Below are positions 1,828 to 13,452 of a stretch of 64,000 bases of DNA, piece by piece. The stretch spans positions 37,695-101,694 of the IMG/VR virus record IMGVR_UViG_3300046048_000227; one strand, given 5' to 3'. Origin of the DNA: a virus. Every line of letters begins with the position of its first letter. Position 1 is the first letter of the stretch. Below the pieces are notes generated by a model. That model searched no databases and was not told the DNA's origin. It saw only the letters and a list, made by a program, of their open reading frames with translations. The position numbers and the translations under genes are program-made.

Positions 1828-3218
1828 TGACTACTTATTACGTAGGTAAAGGCGGAGATAACGCCAACAATGGAACAACTTGGGCACTTAGAAAACTTAC
1901 TTTAAATGGTGCTGAGGACATACCAGTAACTTCAGGTGACGTTGTTTATGTAGGCCCTGGTGTATATAGAGAGCAGTTAACACTAGATGTTTCTGGAACA
2001 AGTACAATAGAGTACATAGGGGATGTTACTGGAGCAAACACAGATGGTATAGGAGGGGAAGTAGTAATATCTGGATCAGATAATGATCAAACAACAACTA
2101 GAAACTACGGAATATGGGGCATTTCTAAAAATAATAGATCATTTACTAATTTTTGTTTCGAAATGCACGGAAGTATATCTATTACTTCAGATGATTCAGA
2201 TGATTTTGTTATAAAAAACTGTGTATTTCGTGGTTATGACGACTATGCTACGGGTGGTGCTATATTCTCTGGTGTTGGTTCTGGTTATACAATTCTTGTA
2301 TCTAGCTGCGCTTTTATTGGGGTAGGTGCAGCAGTTGTATTTTCTTCAATAAGCTCTGTTGATCTTACTTCTCCTAGCGGAGTTAATAATTGCGTGTTCA
2401 TTAATACTTCAACAAACACTACAAGAAGCTCAATAAAATTTACTAATGTAGGTGGTGCCACAGTAAAAGGTTGTACTTTTTTTGGTGCTCTTCGAGGAGT
2501 AGAAACTTCTGCAAGTATAAACTCATCTATAACTGTTATTGATTCTGTGTTCTTAGGCGTTGGATATGCTATGATAGCTGGAACTTCTGGAGACCTGACA
2601 GAAGATTATAACAGTATTTTTGATTGCGAAGTACCAAGAACTTTAGTATTTACTGGATCAAATTCAGACGAAAAGCCTTTATATCCAAAAGAACCAATTC
2701 TTTCAGGCGGTTATAAGTTTCCTAATAATATATTGTTTCTGTCCCAACTAAGTACTATAAAAGACGTAGGTGTTAACTCCTCTTCTCTACCTATAGATTT
2801 ATTTAGTTTAACAAGACCAGTAACAGATTCTAAAAAATCAAGAGGAGCAGTACAATTCAATAATTCTCCTACAAGAGAAACGACTACTACTCACGGAAGC
2901 TCTGCTGCTTCCATAAAACTTACCGACGCTCACAGGCACCAAATATTTGTGCCTGTTTCAGCAGAAAGCACTACAATTACAGTGTATTGCTACCGTGAGA
3001 CTAACTATGCTGGTACACTACCTCAAATGGTGATTAGAGAGCCTGGACAAACAGCAAGAACAACCACAGACACAGGCAGTTCAGGTGCTTGGAACCAATT
3101 AAGCGATACTTTCACTCCTTCTGGAGATACAGATTATGTAATTGTAGAATTAGTAAGTAACAACACAGCAACAAGCGGAGATTACGATGTGTTCTTTGAT
3201 ACTATGGGAGACTTGTAA
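1827..3218 (+). CDS. right-handed beta-helix virion protein, paralog 2
   Basis: YYVGKGGDNANNGTTW...GDVVYVGPGVYRE and NCVF repeats; C-terminal VYCYRETNYAGTLPQ identical to paralog 1. Confidence 0.75.
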   Translation: MTTYYVGKGGDNANNGTTWALRKLTLNGAEDIPVTSGDVVYVGPGVYREQLTLDVSGTSTIEYIGDVTGANTDGIGGEVVISGSDNDQTTTRNYGIWGISKNNRSFTNFCFEMHGSISITSDDSDDFVIKNCVFRGYDDYATGGAIFSGVGSGYTILVSSCAFIGVGAAVVFSSISSVDLTSPSGVNNCVFINTSTNTTRSSIKFTNVGGATVKGCTFFGALRGVETSASINSSITVIDSVFLGVGYAMIAGTSGDLTEDYNSIFDCEVPRTLVFTGSNSDEKPLYPKEPILSGGYKFPNNILFLSQLSTIKDVGVNSSSLPIDLFSLTRPVTDSKKSRGAVQFNNSPTRETTTTHGSSAASIKLTDAHRHQIFVPVSAESTTITVYCYRETNYAGTLPQMVIREPGQTARTTTDTGSSGAWNQLSDTFTPSGDTDYVIVELVSNNTATSGDYDVFFDTMGDL

Positions 3219-3439
3219 TGAATTTTGATAAGTGGGTTAATGGAGTGCCCTTCTTTACAGCATACCCTAACGATCCAGCAATAAGTCCTGTTACCTTTGA
3301 TGTGCCTATCTTAGGGAATATGACTTTTCTTGATATCCCACTACAATCTATTATAAGAACATATCCATTCACAGACGCCTACACAGGTACAACAGGAGAC
3401 CCATGGAATGTGGAAAAATGGGATATAACTTCGGGATAA
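3218..3439 (+). CDS. small protein ending in a free 'PFTDAYTGTTGDPW..KW' strand
   Basis: 73-aa ORF coupled by TAATG; C-terminus resembles that of 4338..6653. Confidence 0.65.
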   Translation: MNFDKWVNGVPFFTAYPNDPAISPVTFDVPILGNMTFLDIPLQSIIRTYPFTDAYTGTTGDPWNVEKWDITSG

Positions 3440-3444
3440 TATAA

Positions 3445-4341
3445 ATGGCAACCAGATTCTATTTACCTTTAAGCGGAACAGCGGCAGTATCTCCATCTTA
3501 TAGCAATCAAGCTTGGGGAGATACAACTATTGCTGCGCGACATGCGGCGGTAACTACTAGAATTAACTCTACTATGACCGACGTAGAGTTTCCAGATGAT
3601 GGGGACGATACCGATAAGGATATTCTGGTTAGACAACACGTATCTGACCCAATAGCCGCTCAAACTATTTCTGCACAAACTATAAAATTCCAAATACGGG
3701 GAGCGGAACCGTTTTCTGTAAATAATTTGTACACCTCTATTGCCATATATGTTGTTTCAAATGATGGCTCTACTGTTCGTGGTGTTATTTTATCTCTATC
3801 TAGAGACACCAGTGAGCTTGCTTTATACTTAGAAAACAGGCAATTCTCAGCAACATCCTCTCAAGTAGTAGCACAATCTGGTGATCGCATAATAATTGAA
3901 ACAGGTTTTGGTGGTAATCCCAATAATAACCAAGACCATGCTGGTACTCTCAGCTACGGTGATGATAGCACTACTGACCTAGGAGAAAACAATACTGATA
4001 CTGCCGCTTACAATCCTTGGGTTGAGTTTGCTAACACTCTGGACTTTGTTGGTACTGCTACATTTGCCTTTCCTGAAGTGGATGGATTTGTGACGATAAA
4101 CTGGAATAAGACTTCTCTTCTGCTAAATAGCATTAACTGGGACGTGAACAGTACTGGGTCTCTCAAGATATTGATGGAAAATGCTGGCACTCCAATTATC
4201 GACCTGGACATTACGTGCCCTAATACCGACAGCGAGGCTATACCTGGAACTTATAATCTAGAAAACTATAACGACCCCGATAAAGGGGAACGGTTGAGAT
4301 GGCCTACTGACCTTGTCTTCCTCGTGAGTATGCAATCATGA
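3445..4341 (+). CDS. putative virion structural protein
   Basis: 298-aa beta-rich ORF inside the appendage cluster; ATGA overlap with the next gene. Confidence 0.65.
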   Translation: MATRFYLPLSGTAAVSPSYSNQAWGDTTIAARHAAVTTRINSTMTDVEFPDDGDDTDKDILVRQHVSDPIAAQTISAQTIKFQIRGAEPFSVNNLYTSIAIYVVSNDGSTVRGVILSLSRDTSELALYLENRQFSATSSQVVAQSGDRIIIETGFGGNPNNNQDHAGTLSYGDDSTTDLGENNTDTAAYNPWVEFANTLDFVGTATFAFPEVDGFVTINWNKTSLLLNSINWDVNSTGSLKILMENAGTPIIDLDITCPNTDSEAIPGTYNLENYNDPDKGERLRWPTDLVFLVSMQS

Positions 4342-6653
4342 CAATAGAGAACGGATACTTTATATACAGTGAGAACGACACTACTCACGATTTAACTGTC
4401 ACAGTCTCAAGTAATAGCGACAGGATATTGGATATTCAGATCATTGTATACGGTGGGGATTATTTATCTAGTGTTGTGCTAGACCCAGGTGGAAATGACG
4501 AGGTTGCACTAGAGTTGCAATCTGGTAATGATGGTGTGGCTTTCTACGGGTCTACCTACTATATAATTAATGCAACTCCTGGAGCAGGTCAAACGCTTAG
4601 AGTAATAACATCTTCTTCCTGTGATGTGCTTATCTCTGTGCTAGATTTGTCCAACATGGACACAACCGCTATTGAAAATGGCTATGCTGTTGGAACTGGC
4701 ACTACCAATGCTCCAACAGTATCATTTTCTACTACCGAAGATGGCGGTCATGTTCATAGTGCGTTTATATCTCAAGCAAATTCCGGTGCAGGAGTAGGAA
4801 CGTGGAGCGGGGTAACTGGGCAAACAACCTTAGATGCAACCGACCAAGGACTCGACCAAACAGGTAGTGCCTATGCTACGCAAACCAGTGCGGGTACTAT
4901 CACTATGAACTACTCAACAACACAAACTGATAACTGGTTGTGTATCGGCACAGCATGGGCAGTTTCATCTGGGCCGGCAGTAGTAACAGGAACAGCTACT
5001 TTATCTGGTACAGGTACATTAACTGCTGCTGGAGATCGAGTACCTATTGTATCTACTGGTTCCGCTACACTAACAGGAACAGGTACGTTAACTGCTTCTG
5101 GCGATAGAGTAATAGTTATTTACACTGGCTCTGTTACAATGAGTGGTATTGGAGCATTAAACGCCACAGCAATAGCCATAAACACAGGATCAGCTACTTT
5201 AGCTGGTACTGGCACATTAGCTGGTATAGGTATAGCATTAAGCTTTGGTACAGCTACGCTTACTGGAACAGGTACATTAACAGCGGCTGGTGAAGCAATA
5301 TCTGCTGTAATTACTGGCTCCGTAACCATGGCTGGAACTGGCACTCTAGCTAGCGCAGGCGTGCAGCTAACTACCGAAGTAGTCATTGGCGAAAACAATA
5401 ATGGTTATATCTCTGCTTTGCCTGGAGAGTATGGTAGAGCTATAAGTAGTATGGCAGACACACAAGATGTAATGCTAACCTACTCTCTACAATTCTCAGA
5501 TACTGGTGGTTCTTTCTTGCATAGAACGTTCTTAAGGGCTTCTGGAGACTGGGCAGCGGCAACATTGCCTACTACTGGTGTAGAATTTGAGATCGACAAC
5601 GTTAACGGTACCGTAGATATCTATAATATAACTACTGGTTCTAGATCAGCGTCACAAGCCAACGGTACCTACACAAATGATACTGTTCTTAAACAAGTTA
5701 AGATAGAAGTAGCTGGTACTACTGCTAGAATAAAAATTTGGAATGACGGTAGCGCAGAACCTGGAACTTGGGCTGCTACATGGTCTTCAGCACCACAAAA
5801 CTCTGGTACTTTACAGCTTGGGCTATGGTCTACCACAGACTGGCACAAAATAACTATAGACGATGTACTAGCCACGTATCCAGCAGTTACTGGTTCAGTA
5901 ACCATGGCCGGTACTGGTGCCTTGACTGCCTCAGCTATAGGAATTTCAAGCAGCACAGCTACGTTAGCTGGACAAGGAACATTGACAGCAACAGCGATAG
6001 CTGTAAGTAATGGTACTGTCACTTTATCTGGTACAGGCACGATTATAGCCGCTGGTTCTGTAATTGGTATCTTGCTAGGAACTGCTACACTGTCAGGAAC
6101 TGGCACGCTAACTGGTACTGGTATTGCTTTAAGCTCTGGAACCGTAACATTAACAGGTACTGGTACTCTTACAGCAGCAGGAGATATAGCTACTGCCATA
6201 GAAACAGGTTCAGCTACATTGTCTGGTACTGGTGTATTAACTGGTATTGGTATAGCCATAAGCAATGGTACAATTACTATGTCTGGAGCGGGTACTTTAA
6301 CAGCTTCAGGAATAGGTATTGCTAATGGCACAGCTACGCTAACAGGTACAGGTACTTTAACTGCTTACGGAACTGTTCCTGCTGGAATAGAGACTGGTAG
6401 TGCTACTCTTGTAGGTACTGGGGCACTAACAGGAATAGGTATTGCTATCTCCTTTGGTACAGCTACCTTAACTGGTGCAGGTACTTTAACAACAAGCAGC
6501 TTGGCTATAACTACAGGAGCAAGCACATTAACAGGAGTAGGCACACTTACAGCAACAGGGCAGGGAGCTTATCCGTTCCCATTCTTTGATGATTTTACTG
6601 GCGTAACAGGCGATCCACTAGACAGCACTAAGTGGACACAGGCGGTAACATAA
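4338..6653 (+). CDS. fibre/appendage protein with ~20-aa GTATLxGTGTLTA repeats and one ConA/LamG-like domain
   Basis: Tandem G[TS]ATL[STA]G[TA]G[TA]LTA repeats flank a beta-sandwich domain (...RIKIWNDGSAEPGTW...IDD). Confidence 0.75.
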   Translation: MTIENGYFIYSENDTTHDLTVTVSSNSDRILDIQIIVYGGDYLSSVVLDPGGNDEVALELQSGNDGVAFYGSTYYIINATPGAGQTLRVITSSSCDVLISVLDLSNMDTTAIENGYAVGTGTTNAPTVSFSTTEDGGHVHSAFISQANSGAGVGTWSGVTGQTTLDATDQGLDQTGSAYATQTSAGTITMNYSTTQTDNWLCIGTAWAVSSGPAVVTGTATLSGTGTLTAAGDRVPIVSTGSATLTGTGTLTASGDRVIVIYTGSVTMSGIGALNATAIAINTGSATLAGTGTLAGIGIALSFGTATLTGTGTLTAAGEAISAVITGSVTMAGTGTLASAGVQLTTEVVIGENNNGYISALPGEYGRAISSMADTQDVMLTYSLQFSDTGGSFLHRTFLRASGDWAAATLPTTGVEFEIDNVNGTVDIYNITTGSRSASQANGTYTNDTVLKQVKIEVAGTTARIKIWNDGSAEPGTWAATWSSAPQNSGTLQLGLWSTTDWHKITIDDVLATYPAVTGSVTMAGTGALTASAIGISSSTATLAGQGTLTATAIAVSNGTVTLSGTGTIIAAGSVIGILLGTATLSGTGTLTGTGIALSSGTVTLTGTGTLTAAGDIATAIETGSATLSGTGVLTGIGIAISNGTITMSGAGTLTASGIGIANGTATLTGTGTLTAYGTVPAGIETGSATLVGTGALTGIGIAISFGTATLTGAGTLTTSSLAITTGASTLTGVGTLTATGQGAYPFPFFDDFTGVTGDPLDSTKWTQAVT

Positions 6654-9600
6654 TGGCACAATTTGGTCGTCCAGATGCAGACATTACCACAACTAACTGG
6701 GGAATAACTCCTTTATTTTCAAAAATAAATGAAGTAAGTCCTTCAGAGCTTGATTACATCACTGCGGTAGCTAACGCAACAGCAACCGCAGAAGTTGGCT
6801 TACCTGATCTGGACGACCCTACTTCTTCTAGCTTACATACAATTAGATTTAGAGCAAGAGCAGAGAAAACTAATAAGGCGGCACTGTTAACAACATCTTT
6901 GGTGCAAGGTACTACCATAATAGGATCGTTAGTACTGGACGCAGAAGTAGACATGACAACAAGCTTTGCGTCGTACTCCTTTACACTAACTAGCGGAGAA
7001 GCTGACAACATAACAGACTATACAGACTTGCGCTTACGTTTTGAACAAACAACTGCTACAGCAGGTAACTTTGTGGAAGTTTCTTGGGCTGAGTTTGAGA
7101 TACCAGATGCCATTGTTATTCATACAGGCACAGTAACTATGTCTGGTACTGGTGCGTTATCTTCAGGCAGCACAGTAATACCAGGAACTACAAAGTCTGG
7201 ATCAACTACGTTAGTGGGTACTGGTGCACTGTCTGCTGCTGGCATACGAATAGGCACAGAAGCAGCAATTAATGCAAATGCGGGAAGGTTATTTGTCCTT
7301 ACTGATAGCAATTATGTACGTGCTAGAGCCTACGTAGAGACTACCCACAGTGACTACGAAGTAAACCACACTCTACAATTCTCTGATATTACTGGTGCTT
7401 ACATATATAGGGTTTACGTGCGTGCTTCAGACGATTGGGCAGACAGTGATAAACCAACTACTGCTGTTGAGTTTGCTATAGACCCTGTAAACGGCACTAT
7501 TAATATATATAACATTACAAGTGGTTCTCGTGGAGCATCACAAGACAGTGATACTTTTACAGCAAACACTAACTTAAAGAATTTACGCATCCAATGTGAC
7601 GGTACTACAGTACGGGCTAAAATTTGGGAAGGCTCAGAACCTGCAACTTGGAATGTATCTTGGTCTTCAGCACCAACTAACAACGGTGTTGTACAAATAG
7701 GTCTTTGGTCTACTACAGGACAGCACTATGTAGACTTAGATGATTTTGACGTTGACGATGTACAAGGAGCAGTGTCTGGTTCTGTCACAATGTCTGGCAC
7801 AGGAACATTATCTGCTTCAGGAATAGCTATAAGTAGGGGAACTGCTACATTAACAGGCACTGGTGCGCTAACTACTGTTGGTTTGGCTATAAGCAATGGC
7901 ACAGCTACACTCTCTGGCACAGGCACATTAACTGCCGCAGGAGATAAGGTTGCAGTTATCTATACTGGCACAGTTACCATGTCTGGTTCTGGCGTGCTAA
8001 CTAGTGTTGGTATAGCAATTAGTTCAGGCACTGTAACATTCTCAGGAACAGGCGCATTAACTGGTATAGGTATAGGAATTGCCTCATCAACAGCTACTTT
8101 GGCTGGTATAGGAACGCTGGCTAGCACAAGTCTGGCGATCTCAAACGGTACCGCAACTCTTAGTGGAGTAGGTACACTGTCTGCTGCTGGAGATGTAGCG
8201 TCTGTCACTTCCTACGGCACTGTAACTATGTCAGGCACTGGTGCATTAAGTGCTTCAGCTATAGCTACCTCTTTTGGAACAGCCACACTAAGCGGGGCAG
8301 GAACGCTAGCTGCAATTGGTTTGGCTATTTCCTTGGGCACAGCTACACTTTCAGGCGTAGGTACATTGTCTGCACAAGGCACAGTAGGCGGAGTAGTAGA
8401 AGGCACTGTAACTATGACAGGGACAGGAGCACTTTCTGCTTCAGCAATTGCTATCAGCAACGGAACTGCTACATTAGCTGGTATTGGCGCATTAGACGCC
8501 ATAGGCATAGCTATAGCTAACGGCACAGCTACGCTATCAGGTGCTGGTGCTTTAACTGCCTTTGCTACAACGTTTGCAGTAGGAAAAGCAACGCTATCAG
8601 GTACTGGAGCGTTATCTGCTACAGCTATAGCGATCTCCACAGGCACAGCTACACTAGTAGGAACTGGAACTCTATCCGCTAGTGGTACAGTAGGTGGAGT
8701 AATCTCTGGTACTGTTACCTTAGCTGGCACTGGAACTATAACAGCTTCAGCTATAGCTATAAGTTCAGGAACTGCTACCCTAAGTGGTACAGGTACGCTA
8801 ACTGCTACTGGAGATAGGGTAGCTGCTATACATACAGGCACTGTTACTATGTCGGGCACTGGTGCTCTGTCTACATTTGGACTCCAGCTAACTAACGAGA
8901 TTATAATTGACGGGAACAGGGCAAAGATCGCCGCTCTTGCTGGTCACTACGGAACACTGATCACTAAGATGGATGATCAAGAACAGGACTACGTAACTAC
9001 GTATTTCCTACAATTCTCCGATACTGACGGTGCCTACGTTCACAGGCTATTTGTACGTGCCTCTGCTGATTGGGCAGCAAGTGACCGACCAACAACAGGT
9101 ATTGAGTTTGAATTTGACAACACAGACGGTTCAATCACTATATATAATATTGTAGCTGGTGTTCGCTCTGCTTCTCAAGACACAGGCACATTCACAAATA
9201 ACACTAACCTGAAACGTGTTAAGATAGAGAATGACGGCACAACAGTTAGGGCTAAGATATGGGATGATGGCTCCGGCGAACCTGGAACATGGGATGTATC
9301 ATGGTCTTCCGCTCCACAGAACGCAGGAGTAACACAAGCTGGTCTATGGTGCACAACTGGTTGGCACTCTATCCACCTAGACGACTTTAACGTATCTTAC
9401 TTAGCAATTACTGGCTCTGTTACTATGTCAGGGACTGGTACATTAACTGCCTCTGCTAGCACAGACGCTTACGCAACAGCTACATTAGCTGGAGTAGGTA
9501 CACTAAACGCAATAGGAATAGCTATTAGTAGTGGAACTGCTACACTAAGTGGCACTGGTACAATTACTGCTTCTTCTATAGCGATCTCTAACGGCACAGC

Positions 9601-10885
9601 CGCACTAACAGGTCTTGGTACCATAACAGCTTACGGTACTGTTGGTGGTATAGTTACTGGTTCAGCTACTTTAGCTGGTACGGGCGCACTAACAGCTACA
9701 GCAATTTCTATAACTAATGGAACCGCTACCATAACTGGTCAAGGAACTTTAACAGCCACAGGTGATGTAGTAGAAGTAGTTGTATACGGCACAGTAACAA
9801 TGTCTGGGGCTGGAACACTAACTGCTACAAGCATAGCTATTTCCTTGGGCACAGCTACACTAAGCGGTGTAGGTATCCTTACAGCATATGGTACTGTTGG
9901 TGGGATTGTTTCTGGTACCGTAACATTATCAGGAAATGGTGCGCTAACAGCTATAGCTATAGCTATCTCCACAGGTACAGCTACTATAGCAGGTACTGGC
10001 ACATTAACTGCACACGCCAACATAGATGCAGTAGCTAGTGCTACCCTAACAGGTGCTGGTAGTCTAACAGCACATGCCAACATAGATGCCCTAGGAAAAG
10101 CAACTTTGTCTGGTATTGGTGCTATATCTTGTTACGGAGAGATAGCTGGACAAGCGTGGGGTAGGGCCATACTGTCTGGAACAGGAAATATCACTGCTTC
10201 TGCTAACATAGACGCAGTAGCTAGTGCCACACTTTCAGGTACTGGTACTTTGTCTGCCTCTGCTATAGCTATAAGCAGCGGAACAACCACACTAACTGGT
10301 AACGGTGCTTTAACGGCGACTGCAATAGCTATTTCCAGCAGCACAGCCACGTTATCAGGTGTTGGTACACTTACTGCTAGTGGTACAAACTTCTCCATAC
10401 TGTACGGTACTACTACATTCATAGGAACTGGATTACTTACTGCTGTTGGCATAGCAATAAGCAGTAGTTCAGCAATATTAACTGGTACTGGTACACTTAC
10501 TGCCTCTGGTATAGCTCTGTCCTATGGTACTGCTACACTTGTTGGTGCTGGCGATCTAACAACTTCTAGCATAGCTATATCCTACGGCACTGCTGTACTA
10601 ACAGGATTAGGGACTATTACAGCACACGCCACACTAAAAATGTGGGGTACTGCTACACTTTACGGTATTGGTAATCTGTATGTAACCATTACAGAATTTA
10701 TGTCAATACCTATCTACGCAGACGCCATAGTAAGCAACTTAATTAATAGATCAGCTAGGTTAAATTCCTTTATTGATGCTGACGCTGAAATGTCTGATGT
10801 AATTAACGTAGATAACGTTAAGGTTAACGATACGATTGTAGTAGATGCAGAGATCATGGAAGAAGACAAAGACATTTACTTCTAA
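6653..10885 (+). CDS. large fibre/appendage protein with GTATL repeats and two ConA/LamG-like domains
   Basis: Likely start ATG 6653 (TAATG coupling, MAQFGRPD); dozens of ~20-aa repeats; two copies of the RAKIWxxxEPxTW domain. Confidence 0.75.
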   Translation: MAQFGRPDADITTTNWGITPLFSKINEVSPSELDYITAVANATATAEVGLPDLDDPTSSSLHTIRFRARAEKTNKAALLTTSLVQGTTIIGSLVLDAEVDMTTSFASYSFTLTSGEADNITDYTDLRLRFEQTTATAGNFVEVSWAEFEIPDAIVIHTGTVTMSGTGALSSGSTVIPGTTKSGSTTLVGTGALSAAGIRIGTEAAINANAGRLFVLTDSNYVRARAYVETTHSDYEVNHTLQFSDITGAYIYRVYVRASDDWADSDKPTTAVEFAIDPVNGTINIYNITSGSRGASQDSDTFTANTNLKNLRIQCDGTTVRAKIWEGSEPATWNVSWSSAPTNNGVVQIGLWSTTGQHYVDLDDFDVDDVQGAVSGSVTMSGTGTLSASGIAISRGTATLTGTGALTTVGLAISNGTATLSGTGTLTAAGDKVAVIYTGTVTMSGSGVLTSVGIAISSGTVTFSGTGALTGIGIGIASSTATLAGIGTLASTSLAISNGTATLSGVGTLSAAGDVASVTSYGTVTMSGTGALSASAIATSFGTATLSGAGTLAAIGLAISLGTATLSGVGTLSAQGTVGGVVEGTVTMTGTGALSASAIAISNGTATLAGIGALDAIGIAIANGTATLSGAGALTAFATTFAVGKATLSGTGALSATAIAISTGTATLVGTGTLSASGTVGGVISGTVTLAGTGTITASAIAISSGTATLSGTGTLTATGDRVAAIHTGTVTMSGTGALSTFGLQLTNEIIIDGNRAKIAALAGHYGTLITKMDDQEQDYVTTYFLQFSDTDGAYVHRLFVRASADWAASDRPTTGIEFEFDNTDGSITIYNIVAGVRSASQDTGTFTNNTNLKRVKIENDGTTVRAKIWDDGSGEPGTWDVSWSSAPQNAGVTQAGLWCTTGWHSIHLDDFNVSYLAITGSVTMSGTGTLTASASTDAYATATLAGVGTLNAIGIAISSGTATLSGTGTITASSIAISNGTAALTGLGTITAYGTVGGIVTGSATLAGTGALTATAISITNGTATITGQGTLTATGDVVEVVVYGTVTMSGAGTLTATSIAISLGTATLSGVGILTAYGTVGGIVSGTVTLSGNGALTAIAIAISTGTATIAGTGTLTAHANIDAVASATLTGAGSLTAHANIDALGKATLSGIGAISCYGEIAGQAWGRAILSGTGNITASANIDAVASATLSGTGTLSASAIAISSGTTTLTGNGALTATAIAISSSTATLSGVGTLTASGTNFSILYGTTTFIGTGLLTAVGIAISSSSAILTGTGTLTASGIALSYGTATLVGAGDLTTSSIAISYGTAVLTGLGTITAHATLKMWGTATLYGIGNLYVTITEFMSIPIYADAIVSNLINRSARLNSFIDADAEMSDVINVDNVKVNDTIVVDAEIMEEDKDIYF

Positions 10886-12975: not shown

Positions 12976-13452
12976 ATGAAGTGCCCACACTGCGGAAAAG
13001 ATATATGTAAACTCAATTACAAAGAGTGTATTGAGTGTGGTAAAACTATTGTTGAGTTTGAAGGTTACTACTTCAAATCCTCTCCAATAATTGCAATCCT
13101 TGAACACTTTGAAAAATTAGTATCTAGGCACTTAAGTAAAGAAACCAACGAAAAAATAATCTTTAGAGTTAAAAGAAAAGGTCTCATGTGGCGGTATGAA
13201 TGTGCTAGGGCTAAGCAACTGTTAGCAGAAGCAGACTACGATCTTGACCTACTACTTGAAACACTAACTTATTTGTCTGAAAGCAATAAATATTCCTGGA
13301 GATTTAAAGATACCCTTGGTGCCGTCCTGCCTATGATAAATGCAGGCATATCTATTATCAAATCCAAACGGGATAGAGAGGCACTGAAAGAAGAGAAGGC
13401 TAAAGTATTTGACAGCTACCTAGATGAGAGAGGCGATATATTAAATGTTTGA
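12976..13452 (+). CDS. hypothetical protein with N-terminal Cys zinc finger
   Basis: CPHC...CIECG; directly upstream of the polymerase. Confidence 0.65.
   Translation: MKCPHCGKDICKLNYKECIECGKTIVEFEGYYFKSSPIIAILEHFEKLVSRHLSKETNEKIIFRVKRKGLMWRYECARAKQLLAEADYDLDLLLETLTYLSESNKYSWRFKDTLGAVLPMINAGISIIKSKRDREALKEEKAKVFDSYLDERGDILNV

Follow-up and report, generated by a model that had tools for sequence, protein, structure and literature searches.

Split lectin-type domains in the fibre module of an uncultivated phage and their proposed completion by C-terminal peptides

The pilins of chaperone-usher pili are immunoglobulin (Ig)-like folds without their last strand, which take up an N-terminal extension in a system that includes a periplasmic chaperone and an usher. 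Donor-strand exchange also underlies the fibres formed by TasA (PMC9674648). Among phages, a 25-residue C-terminal extension of BppU from Tuc2009 forms a hairpin that completes the sheet of the carbohydrate-binding protein BppA and anchors it, as seen in a crystal structure (PMC4742702), and gp39 and gp42 of the Pseudomonas podophage A1002 rebuild one nozzle, each supplying missing β-strands (PMC13730344). Here we describe the fibre module of an uncultivated double-stranded DNA phage, in which a lectin-type domain is split. The window, i.e., the whole stretch of 64,000 nucleotides (nt) that was analysed, comprises bases 37695-101694 of IMG/VR record IMGVR_UViG_3300046048_000227, which spans 101,694 bp and carries 127-bp direct terminal repeats. 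Three lectin-type domains within the module lack the first segment found in their relatives (“headless” domains, or sockets), and three peptides homologous to this segment (“heads”, or plugs) form the C-termini of proteins encoded in the same genome.

The likeness to Tuc2009 lies in a short C-terminal extension on a virion protein, confined to lineages that have the partner, that completes an incomplete sheet, the completion being proposed in the present case. Yet, the BppU hairpin completes a small Ig/titin-like domain of the accessory protein BppA, whereas here it would be a lectin jelly roll, i.e., the sugar-binding-type domain itself, that is completed by a first strand together with a Trp loop. 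Moreover, the plug occurs on several unrelated carriers, the sockets lie inside repeat stalks with up to two per chain, and the sequences of the two systems are unrelated. With A1002 the locus shares an ancestral domain divided between two proteins, as well as Gp80-type fibre proteins. In A1002, however, the division affects the β-propeller and platform of a core tail protein and runs one to one between two neighbouring genes, whereas the present phage has divided a peripheral lectin domain, the tag is movable, and there are several plugs as well as several sockets. Since strand or fold completion is on record for Tuc2009 and A1002, the mechanism, of which the initial annotation of this DNA was not aware in phage appendages, is not without precedent there. 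The comparison with chaperone-usher pili made in the same annotation holds as an analogy rather than as membership: in these pili and in TasA fibres an incomplete β-sandwich is completed by the strand of another subunit, and a protein equipped with a plug as well as a socket might in principle likewise form chains, but the fold, the donated chain end and the missing strand all differ, as the phage domain is a jelly roll without its first strand and the tag is C-terminal. No chaperone or usher family was matched in the neighbouring genes scanned. CBM66 and L-type lectins (4AZZ, ERGIC-53 3WHT, legume lectins) share the jelly-roll fold, but they are continuous chains that include the first strand. 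Searches of the literature on donor-strand and fold complementation in phage fibres did not turn up a description of the present split of a lectin domain.

Three lectin-type domains without a head

The three headless domains, each approximately 174 amino acids (aa) long, are pairwise 48-60% identical (Table 1). The initial annotation had recognized them as homologous units of about 165 aa with E-x-x-I-x-x-N starts and (I/L)DD ends, and this description is borne out, the former motifs starting at 5376, 7259 and 8897 and the latter lying at 5856, 7736 and 9377. A genome-wide search with the domain profile finds exactly these three domains in the phage. The fibre protein P0003 consists of an N-terminal domain, 20-aa repeats, a headless domain, further 20-aa repeats and a head, while P0004 comprises an N-terminal RPDADI-type domain, followed by repeats, a headless domain, repeats, a second headless domain, repeats and an acidic C-terminal region. 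The open reading frame (ORF) of P0004 extends from 6632 to 10885 (1417 aa), and its likely start is the ATG at 6653. In all three domains the repeat sequence leads straight into what is the second strand of the family (TEVVIGENNNGY, TEAAINANAGR and NEIIIDGNRAK, respectively), and the head segment is absent.

Table 1. Features of the fibre module and its surroundings (window coordinates unless marked otherwise; HMM, hidden Markov model)
Feature	Position	Strand	Basis or remark
P0005, 500-aa protein	genome 35768-37270 = L004:11769-13271	+	DNRLRE-type domain (NF033679, 3e-12)
Head peptide 1, FPFSDNFTGTPGDPWAAANWTTSVG then stop	C-terminus of P0005, genome 35768-37270	+	six-frame genome scan
P0006, Gp80-type fibre protein	genome 37346-37720, window -348 to 26, L004:13347-13721	+	PF23140, 1.3e-34
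97-aa ORF	between P0006 and the tailspike-like genes	+	
Tailspike-like protein, 474 aa	403..1827	+	translation; paralogue of next gene
Second tailspike-like paralogue, 463 aa	1827..3218	+	stop shares 1 nt with start of the 73-aa gene
P0001, 73-aa donor protein	3218..3439	+	ORF; GGGAG 8-13 nt before ATG
Head peptide 2, RTYPFTDAYTGTTGDPWNVEKWDITSG then stop	3356..3436	+	C-terminus of P0001
P0002, 298-aa protein	3445..4341	+	ORF; N-terminal domain fused to the repeat-lectin-repeat-head body in P0007
P0003, 771-aa fibre protein, acceptor and donor	4338..6653	+	
Headless lectin domain 1	5364..5885	+	aa 343-516 of P0003; profile match 8e-90
Head peptide 3, AYPFPFFDDFTGVTGDPLDSTKWTQAVT then stop	6567..6650	+	C-terminus of P0003; split-head HMM 51.4 bits
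P0004, about 1410-aa fibre protein, double acceptor without head	6653..10885	+	
Headless lectin domain 2	7247..7771	+	in P0004; 310 bits to domain profile
Headless lectin domain 3	8885..9406	+	in P0004; 332 bits to domain profile

When 1.84 billion representative proteins were searched with a profile built from the three domains, at least 554 matched at E ≤ 0.001, and the window domains match the family profile over its full length (310-332 bits). The presence of a head was judged for 117 domain copies among the best 150 of the 554 relatives, matches that extend down to 1e-8. In 85 of the 117 (81 by HMM, four degenerate ones by eye) the motif FxDDFTGxxGxxWxxxxW stands directly upstream and is joined to the domain, in line with the earlier expectation that intact homologues begin with an FxDDF...W strand. 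The full motif of intact domains reads v-l-F-s-D-D-F-T-G-t-n-G-x-x-W-x-x-x-K-W-T-T and precedes the strand v-D-I-Q-s-N-q-G-r-L by approximately ten residues. The remaining 32 domains, including those of the window, are headless. Comparison of the sequences thus confirms that the window domains lack the very segment to which the free C-terminal peptides are homologous, i.e., a real split of one domain.

The 32 headless domains cluster in a maximum-likelihood tree of the 117 copies. In a quick tree they lie on one side of a branch with a Shimodaira-Hasegawa-like approximate likelihood ratio test (SH-aLRT) value of 93; a more careful tree requires two changes for the headless state, owing to a flagged long-branch join. 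A single change suffices in 55% of the bootstrap trees, compared to approximately 28 changes with shuffled labels. Path lengths within the headless group reach 1.6-1.8 substitutions per site, which indicates that the split is old.

No Pfam, NCBIfam or PHROG family covers the window domains at E ≤ 0.1, and they have no sequence match in the PDB. An AlphaFold2 model of P0003 residues 335-521, built from a 54-sequence alignment, has a predicted local distance difference test (pLDDT) score of 93.2 and forms a 13-strand sandwich, whose first strand begins at model residue 12. Foldseek places the model with CBM66 (4azz, E 9e-8), and VIA-align gives Z scores of 17.0-17.1 to ERGIC-53 (3WHT) and CBM66. 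The structural neighbours found by the two programs are CBM66 (4azz, 4b1m), ERGIC-53 and legume lectins (Z 15-17, root-mean-square deviation (rmsd) 2.6-3.1, identity 5-15%), and superposition on ERGIC-53 and CBM66 yields an rmsd of 2.8-3.0 over 150-175 residues at 10-15% identity. The modelled fold is a ConA-like (L-type lectin/CBM66) jelly roll, as initially annotated, and by its resemblance to these proteins suggests that the headless domains may bind sugars.

In the ConA-like fold, the first strand adjoins the C-terminal strand. The part of legume lectins that aligns with the model begins at chain residues 13-23, and that of ERGIC-53 at residue 59 or 67 by entry numbering. In 4b1m, model residue 11 is aligned to residue 529 of a chain that comprises 161 residues and ends at 677, and hence starts near 517. 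This offset implies that an N-terminal strand present in the known lectins and CBM66 is absent from the confident part of the model. The first confident strand corresponds to a position about 12-20 residues into legume lectins and CBM66 (4b1m), and together with the lack of a head segment before all three domains this agrees with the first strand having been reported as missing.

Head peptides and their occurrence in other genomes

Two free C-terminal peptides, in P0001 and P0003, had been noted at the outset, and both are found where they had been placed: the YPF... motif starts at 3362 and 6570, and the peptides reach within 4-6 residues of the stop codon. The number of donors had to be revised from two to three, however, since P0005, encoded outside of the window, ends in a further head. 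In a scan of 968 six-frame ORFs with an HMM of split heads, the three heads of the phage score 49-61 bits and the next best sequence 6 bits. The P0001 head reaches 60.9 bits, its match extending right up to the stop (0 residues remaining), and it also scores 25.8 bits with the HMM built from the heads of intact homologues. Each of the three heads occupies the extreme C-terminus of its own protein and ends 4-6 residues past the second conserved W-position (W or L), and those of the window stop exactly in the loop that separates the head from the second strand in the intact family. With the head on P0005, three heads match three headless domains.

The head also occurs split from its domain in other proteins. 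All of nine split heads, eight of them non-orthologous, display the pattern [FY]-P-F-x-[DE]-[DNA]-[FY]-[TS]; a W follows 7-8 residues after this motif in eight, L taking this place in P0003 and P0007, and a W a further five residues on is common to all. They end 3-10 residues past the last W and retain the residues that are conserved in intact domains, namely F, D/E, F/Y, T/S, W and W. Between P0003 and its closest relative, the metagenomic protein P0007, the head is the best-conserved segment (89% identity, compared to 80% for the lectin domain, 61-70% for the repeats and 20% for the N-terminal domain), which argues against it being a relic. P0007 carries the N-terminal domain of P0002 instead of that of P0003 on its repeat-lectin-repeat-head body, a fusion indicating that N-terminal anchor domains are shuffled at the repeat boundary.

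The carriers of the head differ. Relatives of P0005 possess a conserved core of about 470 aa that ends in ...SSDHATTGYRPKLVVxYT and is followed by a variable tail, and among 119 listed DNRLRE-family homologues P0005 alone ends in a head. Similarly, a LamG-family donor (PF13385) of another phage, termed G001, is the only one among 112 homologues to have a head. Both of these head-tagged donors come from genomes that encode headless domains. To judge from this distribution, the head is a portable C-terminal tag. As a separate observation, the C-terminal tail of the DNRLRE-core homologues P0156-P0274 is highly variable and consists either of short peptides or of 250-330 aa of various repeats; in P0157 the core is joined via AYxxG-type repeats to an RPDGDI-type domain resembling the N-terminus of P0004. 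A search of 5.8 billion proteins gave no homologue comparable in length to P0001.

The co-occurrence of headless domains and heads, proposed at the outset as a test across related phages, is seen in G001 and in four metagenomic proteins. G001, a contig of 92 kb rated complete, is the one other viral contig with the DNA pattern of the head. It encodes exactly one head (53 bits, next best 3.7), which forms the C-terminus of a 319-aa LamG-type protein, and exactly one headless domain, which resides in a 1219-aa repeat protein encoded by the next gene; the two genes overlap by 4 nt. G001 is an independent, unrelated phage, and thus head and headless domain recur in adjacent genes. Like P0003, the metagenomic proteins P0007, P0020, P0024 and P0033 begin with an N-terminal domain, which is followed by repeats, a headless domain and further repeats, and a head forms their extreme C-terminal end. 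The repeats of these proteins belong to three types that are unrelated to one another: 20-aa GTATLxGTGTLTA, ~21-aa GISSAESFG and 13-aa SDSQEAYIAG. Another head-only protein is encoded on the metagenome contig L077.

A first scan of viral DNA with the head pattern returned mostly a Nudix family of giant viruses together with one true match (L017), and the corrected scan returned L017 only. The metagenome scan gave one true match, L077, the rest being dominated by an unrelated YPFHESFTG...W...W family, and the tightened pattern had no match in 185,579 genomes of prokaryote species. The chance matches L041-L160 constitute a large marine glycosyltransferase-like family with the motif YPFHESFTGxEPNAWCIHRWYNLALW...LYLDADT. 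A search of viral contigs with alignment A1, P0024, P0013 or P0027 as query detected no related loci, and among GenBank phages neither DNA nor proteins similar to the region were found, the same being true for domain 1, P0013 and P0024. Separately, the C-termini of the two socket-only proteins, i.e., window positions 10657-10882 of P0004 and L031:14329-14520 (minus strand) of the G001 acceptor, are non-repeat regions of approximately 70 aa that are rich in Asp, Val, Ile and Asn; they may represent a common end module, either distal or proximal.

Proposed fold completion in trans and its alternatives

The mechanism that we consider best supported, and on balance probable, is fold completion in trans by insertion of the tag into a headless domain. 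In one branch of the family the first ~25 residues, comprising the first strand and the Trp-rich loop, no longer precede the domain, and this segment is instead found as a portable tag with which virion proteins end, be it the protein that contains the domain or a different one. Each tag would most likely insert into a headless domain, complete its β-sandwich and join virion proteins non-covalently. The phage would possess three plugs, on the 500-aa DNRLRE-domain protein, the 73-aa protein and the 771-aa fibre protein, and an equal number of sockets, of which the ~1410-aa protein contains two and the 771-aa protein the third; such a set would permit a serial or a branched fibre bearing several sugar-binding domains. 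What has been observed is the split itself, the relation of its parts to intact domains by homology, the match in numbers, the presence of the same arrangement elsewhere and the conserved sequence of the tag. From these we infer physical docking, and likewise which plug would fit which socket.

Several findings weigh against this mechanism. AlphaFold2 confidently folds the headless domain on its own (pLDDT 93), and hence the additional strand may not be needed. Donor-strand completion as originally proposed agrees with the fold, the split, the homology and the co-occurrence, but the head remains unstructured in a single-chain model of a natural protein: in whole P0033, where socket and plug are ~90 aa apart, AlphaFold2 assigned a pLDDT of ~96 to the domain and of ~45 to the head, which did not form a strand. 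Since the head columns of the alignment held five sequences only and the linker is long, this result speaks weakly against docking in cis and is silent on docking in trans. Furthermore, the chains of approximately 14 proteins from the largest headless subgroup (~450 aa, with a “YPRIMGHR” linker), to which P0013, P0015, P0017, P0026 and P0027 belong, do not include a head, and the match between head and domain counts concerns two whole genomes, the present phage (3:3) and G001 (1:1).

The main alternative is that headless domains are self-sufficient, because they can do without the first strand or the preceding repeat takes its place, and that heads have been retained owing to a different function, e.g., a Trp-rich contact to another part of the virion, to a chaperone or to the host surface, their co-occurrence with the domains being due to common descent. 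The confident model of the isolated domain, the undocked head of P0033 and the many headless proteins without a head in their own chain would all be expected on this assumption. We nevertheless regard it as unlikely: the nine split heads retain the residues of intact domains and share the same end point, the counts are equal in both genomes, the repeat residues upstream of the domain are of low confidence and not strand-like in both models, and the last (DD) strand shows the same alternating hydrophobic pattern in the headless and the headed clades. In five proteins a single chain comprises one socket as well as one plug, which raises the question of completion exclusively in cis, where the stalk would loop back and the head complete the domain of its own chain, akin to a circular permutation with a long insert. 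ConA-type folds tolerate permutation, and pro-concanavalin A is among the fold matches. Such an arrangement would render the heads on domain-less proteins unrelated to assembly, yet a head without any domain is present in P0005, P0001, the G001 donor and L077, and a head is missing from P0004, with its two domains, and from the G001 acceptor; for these head-only and socket-only proteins at least, pairing in trans would be needed. Together with the lack of docking in the AlphaFold2 cis test, this makes a restriction to cis quite improbable.

Since fibre genes often rearrange and the region is rich in repeats, we also considered that the parts are joined at the level of nucleic acid or translation, through recombination of the shufflon or Gin type, frameshifting or ribosome hopping, or that the split is an artefact of assembly or gene calling. 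No evidence in favour of such a process was found. DNA motifs common to head ends and domain starts do not exceed 9 nt and amount to chance 8-9-mers, no inverted repeats flank the junctions, and the repeats are only 60-80% identical in DNA. Moreover, the domains lie deep in long ORFs with 200-750 in-frame codons upstream, the downstream genes have their own starts, which overlap the preceding stops, and the same split is found in independent assemblies. An explanation of this kind therefore seems extremely improbable.

Returning to completion in trans, head and headless domain might, as a more tentative extension, constitute a general portable plug-and-socket pair that determines in which order phage fibres assemble and how they branch. 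The DNRLRE and LamG proteins and the 73-aa adaptor, as carriers of very different kinds, would then hang extra binding modules on the main fibre, and proteins with both parts could chain head-to-socket like pilus subunits. If docking is true, the architecture of an appendage could be read from sequence by counting plugs and sockets, and puzzling traits of phage genomes, e.g., very small ORFs, domains that look truncated and conserved structural proteins with a short tail at their C-terminus, would be accounted for. The fold completion known from Tuc2009 and A1002 would extend to the lectin jelly roll, in the form of a movable tag kept over long divergence. Finally, a short peptide that completes a stable β-sandwich would be a candidate non-covalent tagging pair for protein engineering and laboratory work with phages.

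Gene order around the fibre module

The genes around the split domains are all encoded on the plus strand. The P0005 gene ends 424 nt upstream of the window start, and the gene for the Gp80-type fibre protein P0006 is placed between this first donor and the tailspike-like genes. The last 255 nt of the two tailspike-like genes form a direct repeat with 71% identity, and both paralogues combine an N-terminus resembling a parallel β-helix (pectate-lyase-like) with a common β-rich C-terminal region. The assignment of the β-helix follows a sequence pattern and is thus putative; Pfam yields only a weak match to DUF5123 for the product of the first gene. The two paralogues are likely tailspikes or depolymerases. 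Downstream of the fibre module, a family A DNA polymerase is encoded at 13445.

A Gp80-type fibre monomer like P0006 is also found in the chain-like fibres of the podophages GP4, VP1 and A1002. In the rope-and-bead fibres of A1002, Gp80-type dimers are arranged on a rope at ~20 aa per dimer (226 aa for 11 dimers; PMC13730344). The repeats of P0003 and P0004 have a period of 20 aa, which resembles this value, and by analogy the repeat stalks might be ropes to which Gp80-type dimers are attached. That a rope-and-bead arrangement would account for such repeats in general is disfavoured by G001, which has similar repeats but no Gp80 match.

Approximately 3 kb upstream of the fibre module lies a gene for an RtcB RNA ligase (PF01139, 7e-66; L004:7751-8917 = genome 31750-32916), and a sulfotransferase-like NKWYS protein as well as a SLOG/YspA protein are encoded nearby.

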